Below are positions 30,668 through 39,420 of a stretch of DNA of 64,000 bases, piece by piece. The position numbers and the translations under genes are program-made. Source of the DNA: an uncultured Desulfovibrionales bacterium (lineage in GTDB: Bacteria; Desulfobacterota; Desulfovibrionia; Desulfovibrionales; Desulfonatronovibrionaceae); contig CAZTKE010000001.1 in the NCBI GenBank assembly GCA_964614055.1, positions 6,349-70,348 on the forward strand. Direction: 5' to 3'. Positions within the stretch are counted from its first letter, which is position 1; every line of letters starts with the position of its first letter. The notes beneath the pieces are model-generated. The model saw only the letters and a list, made by a program, of their open reading frames with translations. It had not been told where the DNA came from and searched no databases.

Positions 30668-32986
30668 TCACGATTTTTCCGCTTTATCCGCCTTGAATAC
30701 CTGCACTCCCTGCGGGGAATCAACAAGCCTGAAGCCGCGCTCAAGCAGCTTATCCCTTATATCGTCCGCCCGGGAGAAATCCTTTTTTTGCCTGGCCTCT
30801 TCCCTCCGGGCGATCATTTCCCGGATCTCGCTGCTCAGACGGGAGAAAACAAAGGGCACATTCCCCCAATCCAGAATGCACAGGACCTTATCCATTTCCT
30901 TCAGGGCATTTATGAGCACCTTTTGTTCTTCGGCGCTCATCCCGCTTTGATCCACCAGCTTGTGTACGGTCCGGGTCAACCGGAAAAGGACCGGCCAAAA
31001 GCCCTGCAGGCTCAAGTCCTCTTCCATGCTTTTTTTTAACTCTGATTTGAGATCAAAAACCGCCTGATCCACCTCCGATCTGAGCCCGCCTTCTTTTTCC
31101 GGGCGCAAGGCGTTTAATTTGACCAGCATGTCCTGGACCCGCTTCCAGTTGCGATGCCACATATGCAGGTTCTTTTCCCCGGAAACCAGTGGCTTGTGAT
31201 AGGAAGTGGACAAAAACCACATGCGCAGGGGCGGAAAGCCGCCGCAGTCAACGGCCAGATCGCGCAGATCCCGTTTTTCCTCGGTTCCGGATTCGTCCAC
31301 CACCGGATAGGAAACCGCCCAGGCCTGGGCCTGGATGCGCAAAGCGGAACTCCAGATGCTGCGCAGGTTGTCCAGATGAGGGAATATATGCGGCTGCCCG
31401 CCCAGGACCAAAAGTATCTGCCCCAAATGATCAGCCGCGGCAGCAGCCTGCTGCAAATACCAGGTGGGACGGACGTTGCCCCATTTGGTCTTGACCACGC
31501 TGCCTTCCTTTAAATCCTGGAGAGTGGCCCGCTTGAGCAGGGTGAAATCCCGGGGATTACCCTTGTCATAGCTTTCCAGATCCACTGTCTTACCGGAAAG
31601 CAACTTTTCCGGATCCATCCGGGCCAGGCCGCCATATTCATTATCCCGGCGCACATCGTAATAAACCGAGCGCAAACGCTCATAAGCAAGCCCCTTGGAA
31701 AGGAGACGGTCGCACAGGTCAACGGCCGTATCCATGCACCCGGCATCAGAGACGAAGCGGACCTGTTCATGCACCCCGAGATCCGCGGCCAGGGCATAGA
31801 CTTCCTCAAGTTTTTGGCGACTGAACGCATCCCTGGAGAGCCCCATGCCGCGTCCGGCCTGAAGAGTGCGGTCGTCAAAATCAGCCATGCCCAAAACAGC
31901 GGCCGGCCGCAAACCCTTTTGGTCCAGATACCTCTTCAGCACATCCAGAAAAATTATCCTGCGCCATGCTTCCGGGCAGCCGATATTGTCCAGACTGGGG
32001 CCGAAGCTGAAAAGACCGGCTTCCCGGGACTCGGATTCCAGATAAACCTTCTTGCGGGAGGCGATGTCCCACAGGGCCACGCCCTGCCGACTGGGTTCGA
32101 CAAAAAGTGAAGTACTCAGATAGCGATCTCCCCCGTCCGGAAAGATGGTCACGATTTTTCCGTTTTCAATCTCCCCGGCCAGTTTCAGGGCCCCGGCCAG
32201 AGCGGCGCCGGAACTCATACCCACAAAAATGCCTTCCTCCCGGGCCAATCTGCGGCATGTCTCAAATGCATCTTCATCCTGGACATGGATGATCCCGTCC
32301 AGAAGCTTTTTGTCATATATGCCCGGAGGATAGGATTCGTGCATATTTTTAAGCCCCTGGATCTTGTGTCCGGCATAAGGCTCGATCCCGATTACCTTGA
32401 TCCGGGGATTGTATTCCTTGAGCCGCTTGTTCAGGCCCATCACGGTTCCGGTAGTCCCCATGCATGCCAGGACGTGGGTAACCTCTCCTGCGGTATCCTC
32501 CCATACCTCCGGAGCTGTTCCTTGATAATGGGCATCAATGCTGGCCGGGTTGTTGTATTGATCCATAAGCACATATTTTTCCGCCTCCTCCCGCCCCAGC
32601 CGGTAGGCCTCCTCTATGGCCCCGTCCGTACCCAGATGACCGGGTGTAAGCTCTATTTCCGCGCCGTAAGCCCGCATTATCCGCTTTCTTTCCTCGGAGG
32701 CGGAAGAAGGCATAATCAGCTTTAGTTTGTATCCCTTAATCGCACAAACCATGGCCAGCCCGATACCGGTATTGCCGGAAGTGGCCTCCACCACGGTCTT
32801 GTCCGGGGTAAGCTCCCCGGACCTCTCCGCGGCCTCGATCATGCTCAGGGCCACCCGATCCTTGATGGAACCACCGGGGTTATTCATCTCCAGCTTGGCC
32901 TGTATGGATACGTCCACGTACGGATTAAGCCGGGAAATATGTACCAAGGGGGTTTTACCTATAAGTTCGATTACGCTGTCTTTCAA
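30668..32986 (-). CDS. Fusion protein: cysteine synthase (CysK/CysM-type PLP enzyme) plus CysRS-like domain with degenerate catalytic motifs
   Basis: aa 1-295 have GGSIKDR (PLP Lys), TSGNTG and GMSSGA. aa ~303-772 are collinear with class I cysteinyl-tRNA synthetase (ADFDDRTL, LLSKGLAYE, NPRDFTLLKR, GGQPHIFPHLDN, LRMWFLSTSYHKPL, C-terminal ADDIRDKLLERGFRLVDSPQG). HIGH, KMSKS and most Zn ligands are replaced. Confidence 0.8.
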   Translation of the reverse strand: MKDSVIELIGKTPLVHISRLNPYVDVSIQAKLEMNNPGGSIKDRVALSMIEAAERSGELTPDKTVVEATSGNTGIGLAMVCAIKGYKLKLIMPSSASEERKRIMRAYGAEIELTPGHLGTDGAIEEAYRLGREEAEKYVLMDQYNNPASIDAHYQGTAPEVWEDTAGEVTHVLACMGTTGTVMGLNKRLKEYNPRIKVIGIEPYAGHKIQGLKNMHESYPPGIYDKKLLDGIIHVQDEDAFETCRRLAREEGIFVGMSSGAALAGALKLAGEIENGKIVTIFPDGGDRYLSTSLFVEPSRQGVALWDIASRKKVYLESESREAGLFSFGPSLDNIGCPEAWRRIIFLDVLKRYLDQKGLRPAAVLGMADFDDRTLQAGRGMGLSRDAFSRQKLEEVYALAADLGVHEQVRFVSDAGCMDTAVDLCDRLLSKGLAYERLRSVYYDVRRDNEYGGLARMDPEKLLSGKTVDLESYDKGNPRDFTLLKRATLQDLKEGSVVKTKWGNVRPTWYLQQAAAAADHLGQILLVLGGQPHIFPHLDNLRSIWSSALRIQAQAWAVSYPVVDESGTEEKRDLRDLAVDCGGFPPLRMWFLSTSYHKPLVSGEKNLHMWHRNWKRVQDMLVKLNALRPEKEGGLRSEVDQAVFDLKSELKKSMEEDLSLQGFWPVLFRLTRTVHKLVDQSGMSAEEQKVLINALKEMDKVLCILDWGNVPFVFSRLSSEIREMIARREEARQKKDFSRADDIRDKLLERGFRLVDSPQGVQVFKADKAEKS

Positions 32987-33251
32987 AATGCTGTCCTTTT
33001 AGGTCCAAAAATCAATTGAAAACAAGCCAATATAAAAGTACAAAAACAGAATATAAGTTAACCCATTTTTTGAGCACAGGCAATTAAGGACAAGCCGGGT
33101 CCTATAAATGAGGTTAACACGACAGGTATAAAAACAAGGTCGGGAGATAAGGCTGCAGTATCCAATCGAAATGCGCGGATAATACACCGGCACGAGCCAA
33201 TCCGCTTTTTGGATTAATCCCCAAAACACGACTGCACACAGAGATAAAGAC

Positions 33252-34394
33252 ATGACCCAGCAGGCACACCAACCGTTCCCGGAAAAGATCCCGGGGGAAG
33301 TAAGCGAAAAAGATGAAAAATTCTTTCTTTTTGCCACCTCGGAAGATCTGACCCCGGAACAGATCAAAAGGATCAAGGCCCCGACCAGGATAGTCCCGGA
33401 GCAAAGAGCGGCCCTGGCCACTCACTGGCATCCGGAATTCGTGCCTGTTGACCTTGCAGTAGAACGGATGCAGGCCATGTTCCCCAATCTTGAAGAGGCA
33501 CTGATCATTCCCACTCAGCACAATGAACTTCTGAGTTACAGGGGATACAGCGGTGTGGAGGTGGATTGCTACTCCAAGGGATTCAACCAGAAAGTGCAGC
33601 TTCTGCTGCATTTTGAAAAAGACCGGGTGGAGAATGCTTCCCGGCTCAGGTCCATTCTGGAGCATACCCGGAAATACAGGGCCACCCAGCTATTTGAATT
33701 CATCCGGGCCGTAAACGATGAAAACGGAAACAAAGTAGAAAAGGCGGTGCGGGAAACCGGGGCCGGAAAAGAAATAGTGAATTTTACCCGAATTTATGTG
33801 CGAAAAATTGAAAGACTAATCCAAAAACACCACTCTTCCCTGCCTGCAAACAGCCTGAAGAACAAATTGCTGCGCAATTTCTTCCATCATCTGCGTCAGG
33901 ATTATCCGGATCCGTTCATAGACAGGGTGCAGATATTTCTGAAAACAATCAAAAACATGGTCAAGGCGGATTTCAATCTGGACTATTTTTATCGCACCTC
34001 GGAGATAATAGAAGAGGCCCGCCTGCACGGAGGAGGAATCGTGATCCCCCATCCGGAACAATTCTGGCCCATCCTGCTTGCAGAATACGACGTGGACGGC
34101 TACGAGGTATGGAACCCCCAATCACAGAGATATACAGAATTCCTCATATCCGTGGTCAATCGCAAAAATAAAGAAAAAAAACACCTGCAAAAGGAAATCC
34201 TCATCTTTATGGGAGACGACACGCACATGGGGGAAAAGGCAATGCATGCCGCCTATCAGGACAAGAAAAAAGCGGAACGGGAAATCGGCTGCCAACCGGC
34301 CTGGGAGGATCCGAATATCAAAAGGAAACTTGACTCCGCCGGGATAACCCGGACAAGTGTAATTGAGAGGTACAAACAGCGTTTAGCCGGCTGA
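33252..34394 (+). CDS. Divergent PHP-like metal-dependent phosphoesterase (first gene of the GAK-type cassette)
   Basis: ATHWHPEF (HxH), GGIVIPHPEQ and IFMGDDTHMGE follow the order of PHP-domain ligand motifs, with a long helical insert between them. Confidence 0.45.
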   Translation: MTQQAHQPFPEKIPGEVSEKDEKFFLFATSEDLTPEQIKRIKAPTRIVPEQRAALATHWHPEFVPVDLAVERMQAMFPNLEEALIIPTQHNELLSYRGYSGVEVDCYSKGFNQKVQLLLHFEKDRVENASRLRSILEHTRKYRATQLFEFIRAVNDENGNKVEKAVRETGAGKEIVNFTRIYVRKIERLIQKHHSSLPANSLKNKLLRNFFHHLRQDYPDPFIDRVQIFLKTIKNMVKADFNLDYFYRTSEIIEEARLHGGGIVIPHPEQFWPILLAEYDVDGYEVWNPQSQRYTEFLISVVNRKNKEKKHLQKEILIFMGDDTHMGEKAMHAAYQDKKKAEREIGCQPAWEDPNIKRKLDSAGITRTSVIERYKQRLAG

Positions 34395-34441
34395 GCAGAC
34401 GGCTAGAACTGTCCAAAAAAATTTACAAGGCTGGAGAATGC

Positions 34442-34720
34442 ATGTCCAAGAAACAAAATTTCTTTCACGAATCCATTCAGGACACACAGTCAATAAAAAA
34501 ATTCCTGGAGGCCCTGCAAGAAGGACTGGAAAAAGGCAGCCTGCATCTCTCCGGGCCATCGGAAAACATTGACCTTTCCCCGCAAGGTCTTTTGAATTTT
34601 ACTGTAACCGCCCGGAAAAAGGAGGATTCCAACAAAATATCCCTTGAAATCGAATGGAAAGACTCCAAGGACAGCGAACTCACATCCACCGCTCCAGTAC
34701 AGATAACCTCATCCGGATAA
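34442..34720 (+). CDS. Amphi-Trp domain mini-protein (92 aa)
   Basis: GGAG RBS 6 nt upstream. Alternating polar/non-polar strand KISLEIEWKDSKD around the single Trp. No enzymatic motif. The family name is from memory. Confidence 0.6.
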   Translation: MSKKQNFFHESIQDTQSIKKFLEALQEGLEKGSLHLSGPSENIDLSPQGLLNFTVTARKKEDSNKISLEIEWKDSKDSELTSTAPVQITSSG

Positions 34721-34729
34721 AAACAATTC

Positions 34730-36376
34730 ATGATCTCTTTTGAAACAATACAGGAAAACTTTTATTTCATGGTCCTGGAAGTAAAAAATCAGGTATACAA
34801 CACCTTTGATTTCCTGAACTCCCCGGAACCGGAGCTGTACGAGAAAATAATCTCCAAGGACGACTACATAGACAACCTCAAAAATGTAATTGAAAGCAAA
34901 TGCTTTTCCAGGATTCTGCCCTCTTCCGGACTAATAAAAAAAGAAATCAATAAAATCCGGGCAATTCATACCATAACCGTGAATCTGGAAAGGATCGGGG
35001 ACTTTTGCGTGAATGTAGCCGAGCAGATGAAATACCTGAGCGACTACAAGGTCCTGTACGGATTTGATTATGATGAAATGCTCACGGAAATAGTTCGGGG
35101 GCTTTCCAATATAAATGCGGCCATGCGCAAAAACGACCTGTCCCTTACCCTGGATATCTGTCGCACGGAAAACAACCTGGACAAGCTATACAAAATCCAC
35201 CTCGACCGCATCCTGGAAGAACTTTCCGAAAACCGGACCCATCCCGGGGATTATGTCACCATACTTTTCATGATCCGGTACCTGGAACGCATAGGCGACT
35301 CCCTCTTGAACATTGGGGAAGCCATCCTATTCAATATCATTGGAGAAAAGATCAAAATCAACCAGTTCCAGGCCCTGCAGCAGAATCTGGATCAGAGCGG
35401 ATTTGACGCTCCCATATCCGAGGTGGACTTCCAGGGGATATGGGGAACAAGGTCCGGATGCCGGATAGGAAGAATTGAGGACAAGCAGCATCCGGACAGC
35501 GCCCTGGGAAGCATTTTCAAGGAGGGGTCCAGGGAAAAAATATCCAGGGAAAGGGAAAACCTTAATCTCTGGCAGGAAAAATTCCCCGGGCTAGTGCCCA
35601 GGGTATTCAGTTATCAGCAAAGTAAATCCGAAGACAAGGCCTCCATGCTGATTGAATTCCTCCCCGGGTGCACTCTGGACGAGGAAATACTCACCTCTGA
35701 GCTGGACACGCTAAAAATAGCCTATGCCGGTCTTGAAAAAAAACTGACCCGGATATGGGAGGGCACGCTCAGAAAGGAAAAAGCTCCCACAAACTACGTG
35801 GAACAATTTCGAGCCAGGATGGATTCGGTCCTCCAGGTCCATCCGGGATTCAGCCGCAGGGAGCAAACCATACAAAGCGTCCGGATAAGATCACTGGAAA
35901 ACCTTCTAAAAAAAGCGGCCCACCTGGAGACAAGGCACCCCTCCCCTGTAAGTGTTTTCATTCACGGGGATTTCAATATAAACAATATTGTCTATGAACA
36001 CCGGGAGAATACCGTGCATTTCATAGACCTGCACCGTTCCCGGCAATATGATTACATCCAGGATGTATCCGTGTTTCTGATCTCCAATTTCCGGATGCCA
36101 ATATTTGATTCCAGTCTGCGGCGGCGCCTTAACTGGGTGACTAGAAAATTTTATTCCTTTGCCCGGGCATTCGCGGAAAAACACGGGGATACCACGTTTG
36201 ATGCCAGATTGTCCCTGGCCCTGGCCAGATCGTTTTATACCTCCACCCGTTTTGAACTCAACCATTTATTCGCAAAAGAGATGTTCCTTCGGGCTCAATA
36301 TCTTCTGGATCAACTATTGGCTCCGGAGCGGAAATGGTCCGAATTCAGGATGCCGCAAGAAATCCTTTTTTACTGA
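34730..36376 (+). CDS. PhoU-domain / APH-type phosphotransferase (kinase) fusion protein
   Basis: Two PhoU-like helices are present (ERIGDFCVNVAEQM, ERIGDSLLNIGEAI). The C-terminal half has a kinase core (FIHGDFNINNIV ... VHFIDLHRS) as in aminoglycoside/choline kinases. Confidence 0.7.
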   Translation: MISFETIQENFYFMVLEVKNQVYNTFDFLNSPEPELYEKIISKDDYIDNLKNVIESKCFSRILPSSGLIKKEINKIRAIHTITVNLERIGDFCVNVAEQMKYLSDYKVLYGFDYDEMLTEIVRGLSNINAAMRKNDLSLTLDICRTENNLDKLYKIHLDRILEELSENRTHPGDYVTILFMIRYLERIGDSLLNIGEAILFNIIGEKIKINQFQALQQNLDQSGFDAPISEVDFQGIWGTRSGCRIGRIEDKQHPDSALGSIFKEGSREKISRERENLNLWQEKFPGLVPRVFSYQQSKSEDKASMLIEFLPGCTLDEEILTSELDTLKIAYAGLEKKLTRIWEGTLRKEKAPTNYVEQFRARMDSVLQVHPGFSRREQTIQSVRIRSLENLLKKAAHLETRHPSPVSVFIHGDFNINNIVYEHRENTVHFIDLHRSRQYDYIQDVSVFLISNFRMPIFDSSLRRRLNWVTRKFYSFARAFAEKHGDTTFDARLSLALARSFYTSTRFELNHLFAKEMFLRAQYLLDQLLAPERKWSEFRMPQEILFY

Positions 36377-36395: not shown

Positions 36396-37271
36396 ATGCG
36401 CATAGGAGTTGTCGGGACCATCGGCGGATGGTCCTCGGAAAAACTGGCGGACGCGGTGCAAGACCTCACCGGATACCGGCTTTTAGTGGATATGGATCGG
36501 TTTTCCCTTGATCTCGATTCTAAAAAGGCCTTTTTTAAGGACATGGACCTGAGCCGGCTGGATGCCCTGATCATAAAGAAAGTCGGATCCAAATACTCCT
36601 CCAGTCTGCTGGATCGTCTGGAGTGCCTGCGTTTTTTGCACGAATCCGGCCTGCCCGTATTTTCCGCGCCGGGCAGCATAATGCGGGTTCTAAACAGACT
36701 CAGCTGCACGACAACCATGCGCCTGGCCGGCATTCCCATGCCGGAAACTACTGTTACCGAGGACATAGACACAGCCCTAAAGGCGGTGGAAAAATACGGC
36801 CAGGCCGTATTTAAGCCCCTGTATTCCACCAAGGCCCGGGGTATGGCTTTGATACAGGCGGGGCGGGGAGCCCGGGAAAAAATAGCGGATTTTAACAGAA
36901 ATAATTCGATAATGTATATCCAGAAAAAGATTGAACTAAACGGCAGGGATCTGGGACTGGCTTTTCTGGGCGGCAAATACCTGGCCACCTACTCCCGCTT
37001 AAAACAGAATTCCTCCTGGAACACGAGCACGGTAAACGGCGGCAAATACGCCTTCTGCGAACCAAGCCGGGAGAGCATTGACGTGGCGGAAAAAGCCCAG
37101 TCGCTGTTTTCCCTGGATTTTACATGTGTGGACGTTGCACAGACCGCAAGCGGCCCGGTTGTATTTGAAGTCTCCGCCTTCGGTGGTTTCAAGGGAATTC
37201 AGGAAGCCTGCGGACTGGACGCGGCAAAATTGTATGTCCAGTATGTACTAAAAAAACTGCACTCGGGCTGA
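36396..37271 (+). CDS. RimK-like ATP-grasp ligase
   Basis: 291 aa. Layout and blocks (VFKPLYSTKARGM, MYIQKKIE, DFTCVDVA..GPVVFEVSAFGGFKG) resemble the RimK/GshB-type ATP-grasp. Confidence 0.7.
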   Translation: MRIGVVGTIGGWSSEKLADAVQDLTGYRLLVDMDRFSLDLDSKKAFFKDMDLSRLDALIIKKVGSKYSSSLLDRLECLRFLHESGLPVFSAPGSIMRVLNRLSCTTTMRLAGIPMPETTVTEDIDTALKAVEKYGQAVFKPLYSTKARGMALIQAGRGAREKIADFNRNNSIMYIQKKIELNGRDLGLAFLGGKYLATYSRLKQNSSWNTSTVNGGKYAFCEPSRESIDVAEKAQSLFSLDFTCVDVAQTASGPVVFEVSAFGGFKGIQEACGLDAAKLYVQYVLKKLHSG

Positions 37272-37276
37272 ATCTT

Positions 37277-38473
37277 ATGTGCGCAAATATATGGATGAAC
37301 CGGGAAATCCGGATCCCGGACGGATATAAACTGGCCCGGTTCAAGGGCTCGCCCGAGCTTGGCCCGAAAATCCTTTTTTTCAGCGGCGGTTCCGCACTGA
37401 AAGGCGTCAGCCAAAAAATCACCGCCTACACCCACAACTCCGTACACATAATTACTCCCTTTGATTCCGGCGGGAGTTCTGCGGTTCTGCGCAAGGCATT
37501 CGATATGCCCGCTGTCGGGGATATCCGCAACAGACTTTTGGCTCTGGCGGACAAAACCATGACCGGAAACCCGGAAATTTTCGCTCTGCTTGGGCACAGA
37601 CTGCCGGCCGATGAAAACCAGGAAGAACTCAGGCGGACACTCCGGGATATGGTCCGGGGCAAACACGGTTTAGTTCGTTCCGTTCCCGAGCCAATGCAGA
37701 AAATAATCCGGCATTATCTGGAAATTTTCTCTGAAAACATGCCTGCAGATTTTGACCTGCGCGGGGCAAGCATCGGCAATCTCGTCCTTACCGGGGGATA
37801 CCTGGAAAACAAAAGGAACCCGGATTCGATCATCTATATCTTTTCCCAATTGGTGAAAGCAAAAGGCACGGTTCGCCCGGTGGTTAACCGCAGCCTGCAC
37901 CTGGGAGCGCGCTTGGAAGACGGGGAAATCGTTAGCGGACAACACAGAATAACCGGCAAGCAAACCCCCAAAATCAGTCAGCAGATAAAGGACATATTCC
38001 TGGTGCGGGATCTGAACAGCAAACAGCCTGTAAAAGCCGATATCCGAGAAGAAATAGCCCTGGAAATAAGCCGGGCGGATCTGATTTGTTATCCGATGGG
38101 CAGTTTTTTCACCAGCATCCTGGCTAATCTGCTCCCCTCAGGAGTAGGCCGGGCCATAAAAAATGCGCGCTGCCCCAAAATATTTATCCCCAATACCTTT
38201 TTTGACCCGGAATGCTATGCGCTGCCCCCGGCAAATCAGATAGATCGCCTTTTGGAGATTTTGGGCCGCGACTGCCCCGGGTCCGGCCAAAAAACCGATT
38301 TTTTGGATTTAATTCTTCTAAACCGGGACTATTCCCTGTACCCGGGCGGGGTAGACAGGGAAAAGATCTCCGGCTTGGGATCAAGAATCCTGGAATACGA
38401 TCTGGTCACCGAACAATCTAAACCGGGGATTGATCCGGAAAGACTCTGCGAAGTACTGCTTTCCCTGTGCTAA
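37277..38473 (+). CDS. CofD/YvcK-like (2-phospho-L-lactate transferase family) protein
   Basis: FFSGGSALKG, FDSGGSSAVLRK, VGDIRNRLLAL, IGNLVLTG and YPMGSFFTSILANLLP match the CofD/YvcK signature blocks in order. Confidence 0.75.
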   Translation: MCANIWMNREIRIPDGYKLARFKGSPELGPKILFFSGGSALKGVSQKITAYTHNSVHIITPFDSGGSSAVLRKAFDMPAVGDIRNRLLALADKTMTGNPEIFALLGHRLPADENQEELRRTLRDMVRGKHGLVRSVPEPMQKIIRHYLEIFSENMPADFDLRGASIGNLVLTGGYLENKRNPDSIIYIFSQLVKAKGTVRPVVNRSLHLGARLEDGEIVSGQHRITGKQTPKISQQIKDIFLVRDLNSKQPVKADIREEIALEISRADLICYPMGSFFTSILANLLPSGVGRAIKNARCPKIFIPNTFFDPECYALPPANQIDRLLEILGRDCPGSGQKTDFLDLILLNRDYSLYPGGVDREKISGLGSRILEYDLVTEQSKPGIDPERLCEVLLSLC

Positions 38474-38538: not shown

Positions 38539-39420
38539 ATGCGGGACCAGAAAAAGGCTTATATATTTGGACTTCTCACCGTTTTAATCTGGTCAACGGT
38601 GGCCTCGGCCTTCAAGATAAGCCTGAGGTACCTGGATGTGGTCCAGCTGCTCTTCTACTCCAGCCTGACCTCCCTATTCTGTCTTTTTATCCTGGCTGTC
38701 TTCTTTCACGGCCCTCGCTTTACCCGCCTCTTTTCCCGCGAGGACATTATGCGCTCGGCCTTCCTGGGACTTCTCAATCCCTTTATGTATTATCTGGTCC
38801 TGTTCAAGGCCTACGACCTTTTGCCCGCCCAAGAGGCCCAGCCGCTCAACTATACCTGGGGCATAACCATCACCATTCTTGCAGTCCCTCTTCTGGGCCA
38901 GAAAATAACCGGGAAAAGATTCGCGGCCATTGTAATCAGCTACCTGGGTGTTGTTGTCATTTCCACGCACGGCACTCCATGGGACATGAATTTTTCTGAC
39001 CCATGGGGCGTTTTTTTGGCCCTTTTCAGTACCATAATCTGGGCTCTTTACTGGATCGCCAATACCAGGGACAACCTGCCGGCCATTTTGCGCCTGCTTT
39101 TGAATTTTCTGGCGGGAACTGTCTATCTGGGCATTCTTTTACCTTTTGTCTCCACTCCGCTTATTTTCTCCTTCAAGGGACTTGCCGGGGCAATTTACGT
39201 GGGACTTTTTGAGATGGGCATCACTTTTGTCTTCTGGCTGCAGGCCCTTAAATATTCGAAAACCACGGCCCAGGTGAGCAATCTTATTTATCTCTCCCCG
39301 TTTCTGTCCCTTGTATTCATCCACTACCTGGTCGGGGAAAAAATCCTGCCCTCCACCCTAGTCGGCCTGGTTTTGATCCTGTCCGGGCTGATCATGCAAA
39401 ACAGGGTGAAAAACACTTAA
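38539..39420 (+). CDS. EamA/DMT family permease
   Basis: 10-TM protein with duplicated EamA halves. It lies 65 nt downstream of the cassette on the same strand. Confidence 0.8.
   Translation: MRDQKKAYIFGLLTVLIWSTVASAFKISLRYLDVVQLLFYSSLTSLFCLFILAVFFHGPRFTRLFSREDIMRSAFLGLLNPFMYYLVLFKAYDLLPAQEAQPLNYTWGITITILAVPLLGQKITGKRFAAIVISYLGVVVISTHGTPWDMNFSDPWGVFLALFSTIIWALYWIANTRDNLPAILRLLLNFLAGTVYLGILLPFVSTPLIFSFKGLAGAIYVGLFEMGITFVFWLQALKYSKTTAQVSNLIYLSPFLSLVFIHYLVGEKILPSTLVGLVLILSGLIMQNRVKNT

Follow-up and report, generated by a model that had tools for sequence, protein, structure and literature searches.

[quoted passage not shown] In the LysW pathway, LysX loads the conserved C-terminal Glu of LysW, and enzymes that resemble small-molecule enzymes work on the carrier-bound substrate (PMC12998189). 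The HprK-family kinases PadeK and PsmK phosphorylate the C-terminal Ser of lasso peptides (PMC6993621). Closest of all to the locus considered here is the GAK system (TIGR04354-TIGR04358), which is defined in databases but experimentally uncharacterised. No paper on the function of this system or of its amphi-Trp family was found in the literature, and the sole paper found that mentions 'amphi-Trp' does so in a proteomics table (PMC13490349).

The window, by which we mean the whole 64,000-nt stretch of DNA that was analysed, carries a reduced copy of the GAK cassette, and the 92-aa protein encoded in it is a member of this known but uncharacterised amphi-Trp family. The features to which the text refers are listed below.

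33252..34394, + strand: 380-aa cassette protein, family unassigned, placed by position, with PHP-like motifs recognised by eye only
34383-34559, - strand: antisense ORF overlapping the amphi-Trp gene
34433..34436, + strand: Shine-Dalgarno sequence GGAG, read from the sequence, 5 nt before the ATG
34442..34720, + strand: amphi-Trp gene, 92 aa, type A (GAK type), identified by TIGR04354, PF20068, dN/dS and AlphaFold
34460..34483, + strand: N-terminal signature of the GAK subtype, residues 7-14, FFHESIQD, from alignment conservation
34477-34731, - strand: antisense ORF overlapping the amphi-Trp gene
34484..34657, + strand: predicted folded core ending in W72, with a helix at residues 15-31 and strands at 34-37, 42-45, 52-59 and 64-71 (AlphaFold pLDDT 91-96)
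34658..34717, + strand: tail, residues 73-92, an unconserved polar linker, the mini-strand V86-Q-I88 and a variable end (TSSG), from alignment and AlphaFold
34730..36376, + strand: fusion of a PhoU domain and an APH-type kinase (PF01895, PF01636), hereafter PhoU-kinase
36396..37271, + strand: GAK-system ATP-grasp of the RimK family (TIGR04356, 441.7 bits vs cut-off 300)
37277..38473, + strand: GAK-system CofD-like protein (TIGR04357, 516.5 bits vs cut-off 340; PF01933)
38539..39420, + strand: EamA/DMT permease after the cassette (PF00892)

The cassette genes follow one another on the + strand in the order 380-aa protein, amphi-Trp, PhoU-kinase, GAK ATP-grasp and CofD-like protein. The PhoU-kinase starts 9 nt after the TAA stop codon of the amphi-Trp gene and in the same reading frame (34718-34732), and the ATP-grasp and CofD-like genes are separated by 5 nt. 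CofD-type transferases (PF01933) act on small molecules. The 380-aa protein matched nothing in NCBIfam or in a Pfam search run up to E 10, which left a tentative PHP assignment without confirmation. In most cassettes its orthologues (45-67% identical) immediately precede the amphi-Trp gene. The EamA/DMT permease belongs to this lineage only; it is present in the close relatives L053-L055, and tblastn at E<=1e-30 did not detect it in the other surveyed cassettes. Inspection of 32987-33251 by eye revealed no Pho box. A divergently transcribed cysteine synthase/CysRS-like fusion gene (30668-32986, - strand) adjoins the cassette in the window and also in L053 and L055; it was not seen beside more distant cassettes.

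Compared with the GAK system as defined, the window protein scores above both family cut-offs and is encoded beside the GAK ATP-grasp and the GAK CofD-like protein, but the cassette lacks two members of the set. HprK-related kinase B (TIGR04355) had no match in the window's 65%-complete genome and was also absent from L053-L055, L081 and L084. The XXXCH protein (TIGR04358) gave no match in the genome either, in a weak search that likewise returned nothing from control genomes, and no XXXCH ORF was seen flanking the window cassette. Both components are missing in the window, in its closest relatives L053-L055 and in two Desulfohalobiaceae MAGs.

The likeness to LysW and LysX is that a small non-catalytic protein has a RimK/LysX-family ATP-grasp and a kinase encoded next to it. 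The differences are that the window protein ends in Gly, that the C-terminus of its family is variable, that the window protein has no Cys and only a mild acidity, and that its ligase is not a LysX equivalog (TIGR02144, 83.1 bits vs cut-off 275.6). The ligase is of the RimK family, as for S6, but it reaches only 59.9 bits with NF007764 against a cut-off of 331; the next-best models overall were MptN (154 bits), LysX (83) and RimK (60), all below their cut-offs. An S6-like substrate of a RimK-type enzyme is expected to have a conserved acidic C-terminal end. Such an end is missing here, Asp or Glu being the last residue in 18% of the relatives. With PadeK and PsmK there is a likeness in that full GAK cassettes have an HprK-related kinase and that Ser is a frequent last residue of amphi-Trp proteins. 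The window, by contrast, lacks a kinase of this kind, and the protein it encodes has a final Gly and forms a folded domain of 92 aa rather than a leader-core peptide. A RiPP precursor (graspetide or phosphorylated lasso peptide) was considered and rejected on the folded domain (pLDDT 86.4) and the lack of an HprK-type kinase. With the ATP-grasp maturase model TIGR04187, the ligase scored 23 bits vs a cut-off of 350.

The 92-aa ORF is a real gene under purifying selection and a clear member of the amphi-Trp family. Its length alone proves nothing, because ORFs of that size are abundant locally (118 ORFs of >=50 aa within 18 kb around the gene), and it is on this abundance, including the two antisense ORFs (58 and 84 aa) that overlap the gene, that a chance ORF between two enzyme genes could be argued. 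That reading, which we regard as having practically no chance of being right, is refuted by the conserved position of the gene, by matches to TIGR04354 (E 8.5e-19, 67.6 bits vs cut-off 31) and PF20068 (34.7 bits vs cut-off 27), by 410 relatives at E<=0.001 in a HMMER scan of 50%-identity representatives, by a dN/dS of 0.235 overall and 0.15 over residues 1-72 (relative to a 78%-identical orthologue), and by a confident AlphaFold fold. The antisense ORFs themselves are most likely spurious, since the selection pattern sits on the + strand. A word-indexed search with the single protein had returned 2 relatives only; the full HMMER scan and a profile search gave the wider set. Four proteins of 777-1718 aa in the HMMER list, each matched over several stretches, are Ig/PKD/YDG repeat proteins and were discarded as false positives.

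The gene starts with ATG, its 92 residues are exactly those quoted in the sequence-only reading, and in L053, the 78%-identical orthologue, the Shine-Dalgarno sequence is GGAGG. That reading had described a short ORF with a good ribosome-binding site between enzyme genes, and this observation is confirmed. It had also noted the absence of a catalytic motif; we found no matching enzyme family in Pfam, NCBIfam, PADLOC or PHROGs, and the last two libraries gave zero matches of any kind. The single Trp that it placed in an alternating polar/apolar strand is W72, which closes KISLEIEW at the end of the strand that AlphaFold predicts at 64-71. The Ser/Thr-rich tail ending in Gly is likewise present (TSTAPVQITSSG), with 40% Ser/Thr in the last 20 residues, and the name it used, amphi-Trp, is the database name of the family (TIGR04354). 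The protein is mildly acidic (pI 5.3; family median 6.1).

Folding of the 92-aa protein by AlphaFold with 80 sequences gave a pTM of 0.70. The tail had no secondary structure in this monomer model (pLDDT 62-70), and no PDB match was found for the fold model. Because the amphi-Trp and kinase genes share a frame, with the TAA and 9 nt between them, a tethered construct was possible, in which the amphi-Trp protein was read through into the kinase (7 paired rows plus 112 kinase-only rows). No confident docking of the two was seen in the tethered model (pTM 0.63), although with 7 paired rows this is a weak test. The linker at 79-99 was below pLDDT 50 and the small domain, at 62-81, showed no gain in confidence. 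Residues 4-13 were modelled as a strand and residues 86-88 as a low-confidence strand. Foldseek matched the kinase half of the model to APH(3') and ethanolamine kinases and the PhoU half to PhoU (target TM 0.85-0.91).

The linkage of the gene to the enzymes was followed in 301 genomes of the window's phylum, of which 61 had an amphi-Trp match and 21 a GAK ATP-grasp above its cut-off. Among the cassettes of these 21 genomes, 18 were assessable, and in 17 of them an amphi-Trp gene lies directly upstream of the PhoU-kinase and after the 380-aa gene. The order in the 17 is 380-aa protein, amphi-Trp (~90 aa), PhoU-kinase, ATP-grasp, HprK-related kinase B, CofD-like protein and additional amphi-Trp paralogues, a number of which carry a fused XXXCH domain. 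The exception, G074, is a 98%-complete genome whose cassette has a 69-nt gap instead of the type-A gene (the type found in the window; see below), so the type-A protein must be dispensable somewhere. GAK cassettes extend beyond the phylum to Nitrospinota, Myxococcota, Planctomycetota, Ignavibacteria and Gammaproteobacteria. Three relatives of the amphi-Trp protein were picked blind to context (Enhygromyxa, a Nitrospinae MAG and Maridesulfovibrio), and in 3/3 its gene has the PhoU-kinase and RimK-type genes as neighbours. Relatives amenable to experiment, such as Pseudodesulfovibrio mercurii ND132 (protein P0161) and Maridesulfovibrio, are among the carriers of the cassette. Another 18 loci were found via the ATP-grasp (in Ignavibacteria, Planctomycetota, Nitrospinota, Gammaproteobacteria and others), and every one whose contig extends far enough contains a small amphi-Trp gene; type-A genes occur in cassettes of all four of the groups named. 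The PhoU-kinase itself is represented by 1616 protein clusters at E<=1e-30.

This conserved linkage defines amphi-Trp, PhoU-kinase and ATP-grasp as the constant core of the cassette, while the 380-aa protein, HprK-related kinase B, the CofD-like protein and the XXXCH proteins are variable. A functional link of the amphi-Trp protein to the cassette enzymes is well supported by the position found in 17/18 cassettes and by the same arrangement in other phyla. In most loci the amphi-Trp gene either overlaps the kinase gene by a few bases or is separated from it by up to ~55 nt, a spacing suggestive of coupled expression. The shared frame of the two genes recurs in 7/18 other loci checked with a kinase ORF, where the stop codons differ; there was no sign of read-through between the ORFs in the same-frame loci. 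Apparent fusions of the 380-aa and amphi-Trp proteins in L041 and L046 were rejected: the 380-aa gene ends in a stop in each locus, and the supposed fusions are long spurious ORFs read in a different frame of G+C-rich DNA.

The accessory genes form a mosaic. HprK-related kinase B is the part missing from the window (36396-38473), L081 and L084, and the CofD-like gene is missing in G041, in the Enhygromyxa locus (L050) and in the Nitrospinae locus (L051). G041, a genome of the same taxonomic order as the window, keeps HprK-related kinase B without the CofD-like gene. The 380-aa protein is missing in the Enhygromyxa and Planctomycetota loci. In two gammaproteobacteria, Catenovulum sediminis and a Thiohalophilus MAG (L090:11049-11327, L091:11128-11553), the type-A gene does not have its usual place before the PhoU-kinase and is found elsewhere in the cluster, ~3 kb downstream of HprK-related kinase B. 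A separate PhoU-like gene was seen a few kb upstream of the cassette in L032, L045, L049, L080, L084 and L087, and a PhoX phosphatase (L051:2996-5032) near the Nitrospinae cassette.

Three types of amphi-Trp protein could be separated. Type A, to which the window protein belongs, is encoded beside the PhoU-kinase and carries F-x-[HYF]-E-S-x-Q-D at residues 7-14; in the loci surveyed it was seen only inside GAK cassettes. The strict motif is present in 34/38 genes just upstream of a PhoU-kinase, in 1/24 other cassette paralogues and in 0/79 stand-alone proteins, and the single carrier among the 24 is a relocated type A. As judged from this distribution, the ES.QD segment is the mark of the enzyme-linked subtype. 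In Planctomycetota orthologues residue 11 is Ala, which speaks against a universal acceptor role of Ser11.

Type B comprises the motif-free downstream paralogues of full cassettes, which have two to four amphi-Trp paralogues with different appendages. Type B proteins often carry a long extension, acidic or Pro-rich, with D/E at its end, or are fused to XXXCH; the window has no type B paralogue. Second paralogues after the CofD-like gene (L033:6099-6413, L039:12047-12361, L049:6910-7224, L089:9207-9521 and others) end in ...EASEDDD, ...ETEEDE or ...NSEDDE. Should there be a RimK-like C-terminal acceptor among the amphi-Trp proteins, these acidic-tailed sequences would make type B a better candidate than the window protein. 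Where the XXXCH domain is fused to a degenerate amphi-Trp domain (L034:11537-12148, L038:6128-6652), it shows a weak likeness to the C-terminal haem-binding end of cytochrome b562 and cytochrome c' (Pfam E 0.006-0.01), which hints at a single-Cys haem site.

Type C proteins stand alone, are ~91 aa long and start with MGRETRLFKSEERK. Their identity is 60-84% across Desulfobacterota, Chloroflexota, Acidobacteriota, Bacteroidota, Cyanobacteria, Gammaproteobacteria and others, a cross-phylum conservation that is unusually high for an orphan small protein. No conserved neighbour was found for type C, the best candidate gene occurring in 11/80 loci (L096-L175, e.g. L096:4001-4273). The type A and type C profiles are related with an hhalign probability of 95.5%. 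W72 and a hydrophobic-x-hydrophobic element in the tail are common to all three types and so belong to the fold, not to the enzyme link.

The conservation of the window protein was mapped with 194 non-redundant relatives. F7 (100%) and W72 are invariant, and S11 (97%), P47 (97%), D14 (94%), Q13 (88%) and E10 (83%) are close behind. Positions 75-85 have 0.5-1.1 bits of conservation. Beyond them, position 86 is L in 74% and position 88 is I in 84% (I, V or L in 99%), and the hydrophobic-x-hydrophobic element, V86-Q-I88 in the window protein, is present in 191/194 relatives by a mini-strand criterion that was derived in this analysis and is not a published family definition. The residues that follow I88 number from 1 to 29, and the last one is S in 26%, K in 16%, G in 12%, D in 10% and E in 8%. 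The Ser/Thr richness of the tail is lineage-specific, at 0.40 in the window against a family median of 0.14. Relative to the nearest orthologue the tail has a dN/dS of ~1, a value that comes from only ~10 substitutions over few sites. In L084, whose cassette is intact, the orthologue has 78 aa, ends in ...IEWKDSENK and is followed by AT-rich non-coding DNA in place of a tail; the tail is missing also in a few representatives such as P0026. The conserved L86-x-I88 pair recurs in amphi-Trp proteins without GAK enzymes nearby and for that reason is a feature of the fold, not an enzyme handle.

These data bear directly on the site of modification proposed in the sequence-only reading, in which the flexible tail or the C-terminal alpha-carboxylate is modified by the ATP-grasp, kinase or transferase. 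In its favour, the ligase is a RimK-family enzyme, and S6 receives glutamates at its C-terminus from RimK (PMC10375531), LysX loads the C-terminal Glu of LysW (PMC12998189) and lasso peptides are phosphorylated at a C-terminal Ser by HprK-family kinases (PMC6993621). Three sequences of the window's own clade share the ending (S/T)SG, and Ser is the commonest last residue in the family. Set against this are the variable last residue and the varying length beyond I88, the unconserved linker and the tail dN/dS of ~1, the tail-less orthologues, the L-x-I pair of the enzyme-free paralogues, the lack of an HprK-type kinase in the window and a ligase far below the RimK and LysX equivalog cut-offs. 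The alignment indicates that the C-terminal carboxylate is not a conserved handle, and the homologue comparison, which the sequence-only reading had itself named as a possible refutation, went against it for both the carboxylate and the Ser/Thr tail. We therefore regard a C-terminal site as improbable, the least probable of the functional readings weighed here. What survives of the broader claim is a role as substrate, carrier or partner, which is favoured by the constant companionship upstream of the kinase in 17/18 cassettes and in other phyla.

Our preferred reading, to which we give a probability of roughly one half, is that the window protein works in stoichiometric amounts as a non-catalytic partner of the PhoU-kinase and the GAK ATP-grasp. 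By the AlphaFold models the type-A protein is a small folded domain made of an N-terminal strand, a helix and a four-strand amphipathic sheet ending in W72, after which a loose linker leads to a short hydrophobic mini-strand. Its N-terminal F-x-H-E-S-x-Q-D would be presented to the PhoU-kinase and the ATP-grasp, where the segment may accept or carry a group or may confer specificity. The identity of the amphi-Trp protein, its predicted fold, the pattern of its conservation and the linkage of its gene are matters of observation; its physical interaction with the enzymes, and any covalent modification, we infer. Several results sit uneasily with this reading. The three enzymes are each most similar to enzymes of small molecules (APH(3')/ethanolamine kinases, MptN and CofD), G074 has a cassette without the type-A gene, the Planctomycetota have Ala11, and the tethered model gave no confident docking, weak as that test was. 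The stand-alone paralogues without a conserved neighbour also imply that the amphi-Trp fold can work without these enzymes.

In the strongest competitor, the cassette makes or modifies a small phospho-ester or glutamyl compound, and the amphi-Trp protein, itself never covalently modified, would serve the PhoU-kinase only non-covalently, as regulator, chaperone or assembly subunit. In structure the kinase is nearest to aminoglycoside and ethanolamine kinases, and among named families the ligase comes nearest to the cofactor ligase MptN. CofD-type transferases likewise have small molecules as substrates, and in the window's lineage the cassette is followed by a DMT exporter. Genes that overlap or nearly abut would suit subunits produced in equal numbers, and G074 manages without a type-A gene. 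However, no small-molecule product is known, and two to four paralogues with different appendages would be unusual for a mere regulator. The LysW pathway, moreover, has enzymes of the small-molecule kind acting on carrier-bound substrates (PMC12998189), and for the same reason leaves room for a covalent carrier role. We hold this competitor to be possible, with the odds clearly against it. Somewhat less likely still is that the type-A protein is a new protein acceptor or carrier, in which E10, S11 or D14 would be decorated by the PhoU-kinase and the ATP-grasp (phospho- or glutamyl-) and the CofD-like protein would elaborate the product. An autonomous role like that of the stand-alone amphi-Trp proteins, for example as an abundant structural or stress protein that is only co-transcribed with the enzymes, seems unlikely. 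In its favour are stand-alone paralogues 60-84% identical across phyla with no conserved neighbours, and an amphi-Trp protein of Dissulfuribacter thermophilus, subtype not given, that ranked in the top 20 proteins by abundance in one growth condition (PMC13490349). Yet the type-A protein with its own N-terminal motif was seen in the surveyed loci only inside GAK cassettes, and its place beside the kinase is kept across phyla.

Our analysis shifts interest from the C-terminus to the N-terminal F-x-H-E-S-x-Q-D segment, and the separation of three amphi-Trp subtypes means that results from one are not to be carried over to another. The GAK cassette is widespread across phyla, and its amphi-Trp family, though catalogued, is functionally uncharacterised in the literature found. 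As the sole constant non-enzymatic part of the cassette, the amphi-Trp protein is a natural entry point for its biochemistry. If the acceptor reading were true, the cassette would represent a novel protein-modification pathway, possibly tied to phosphate status.
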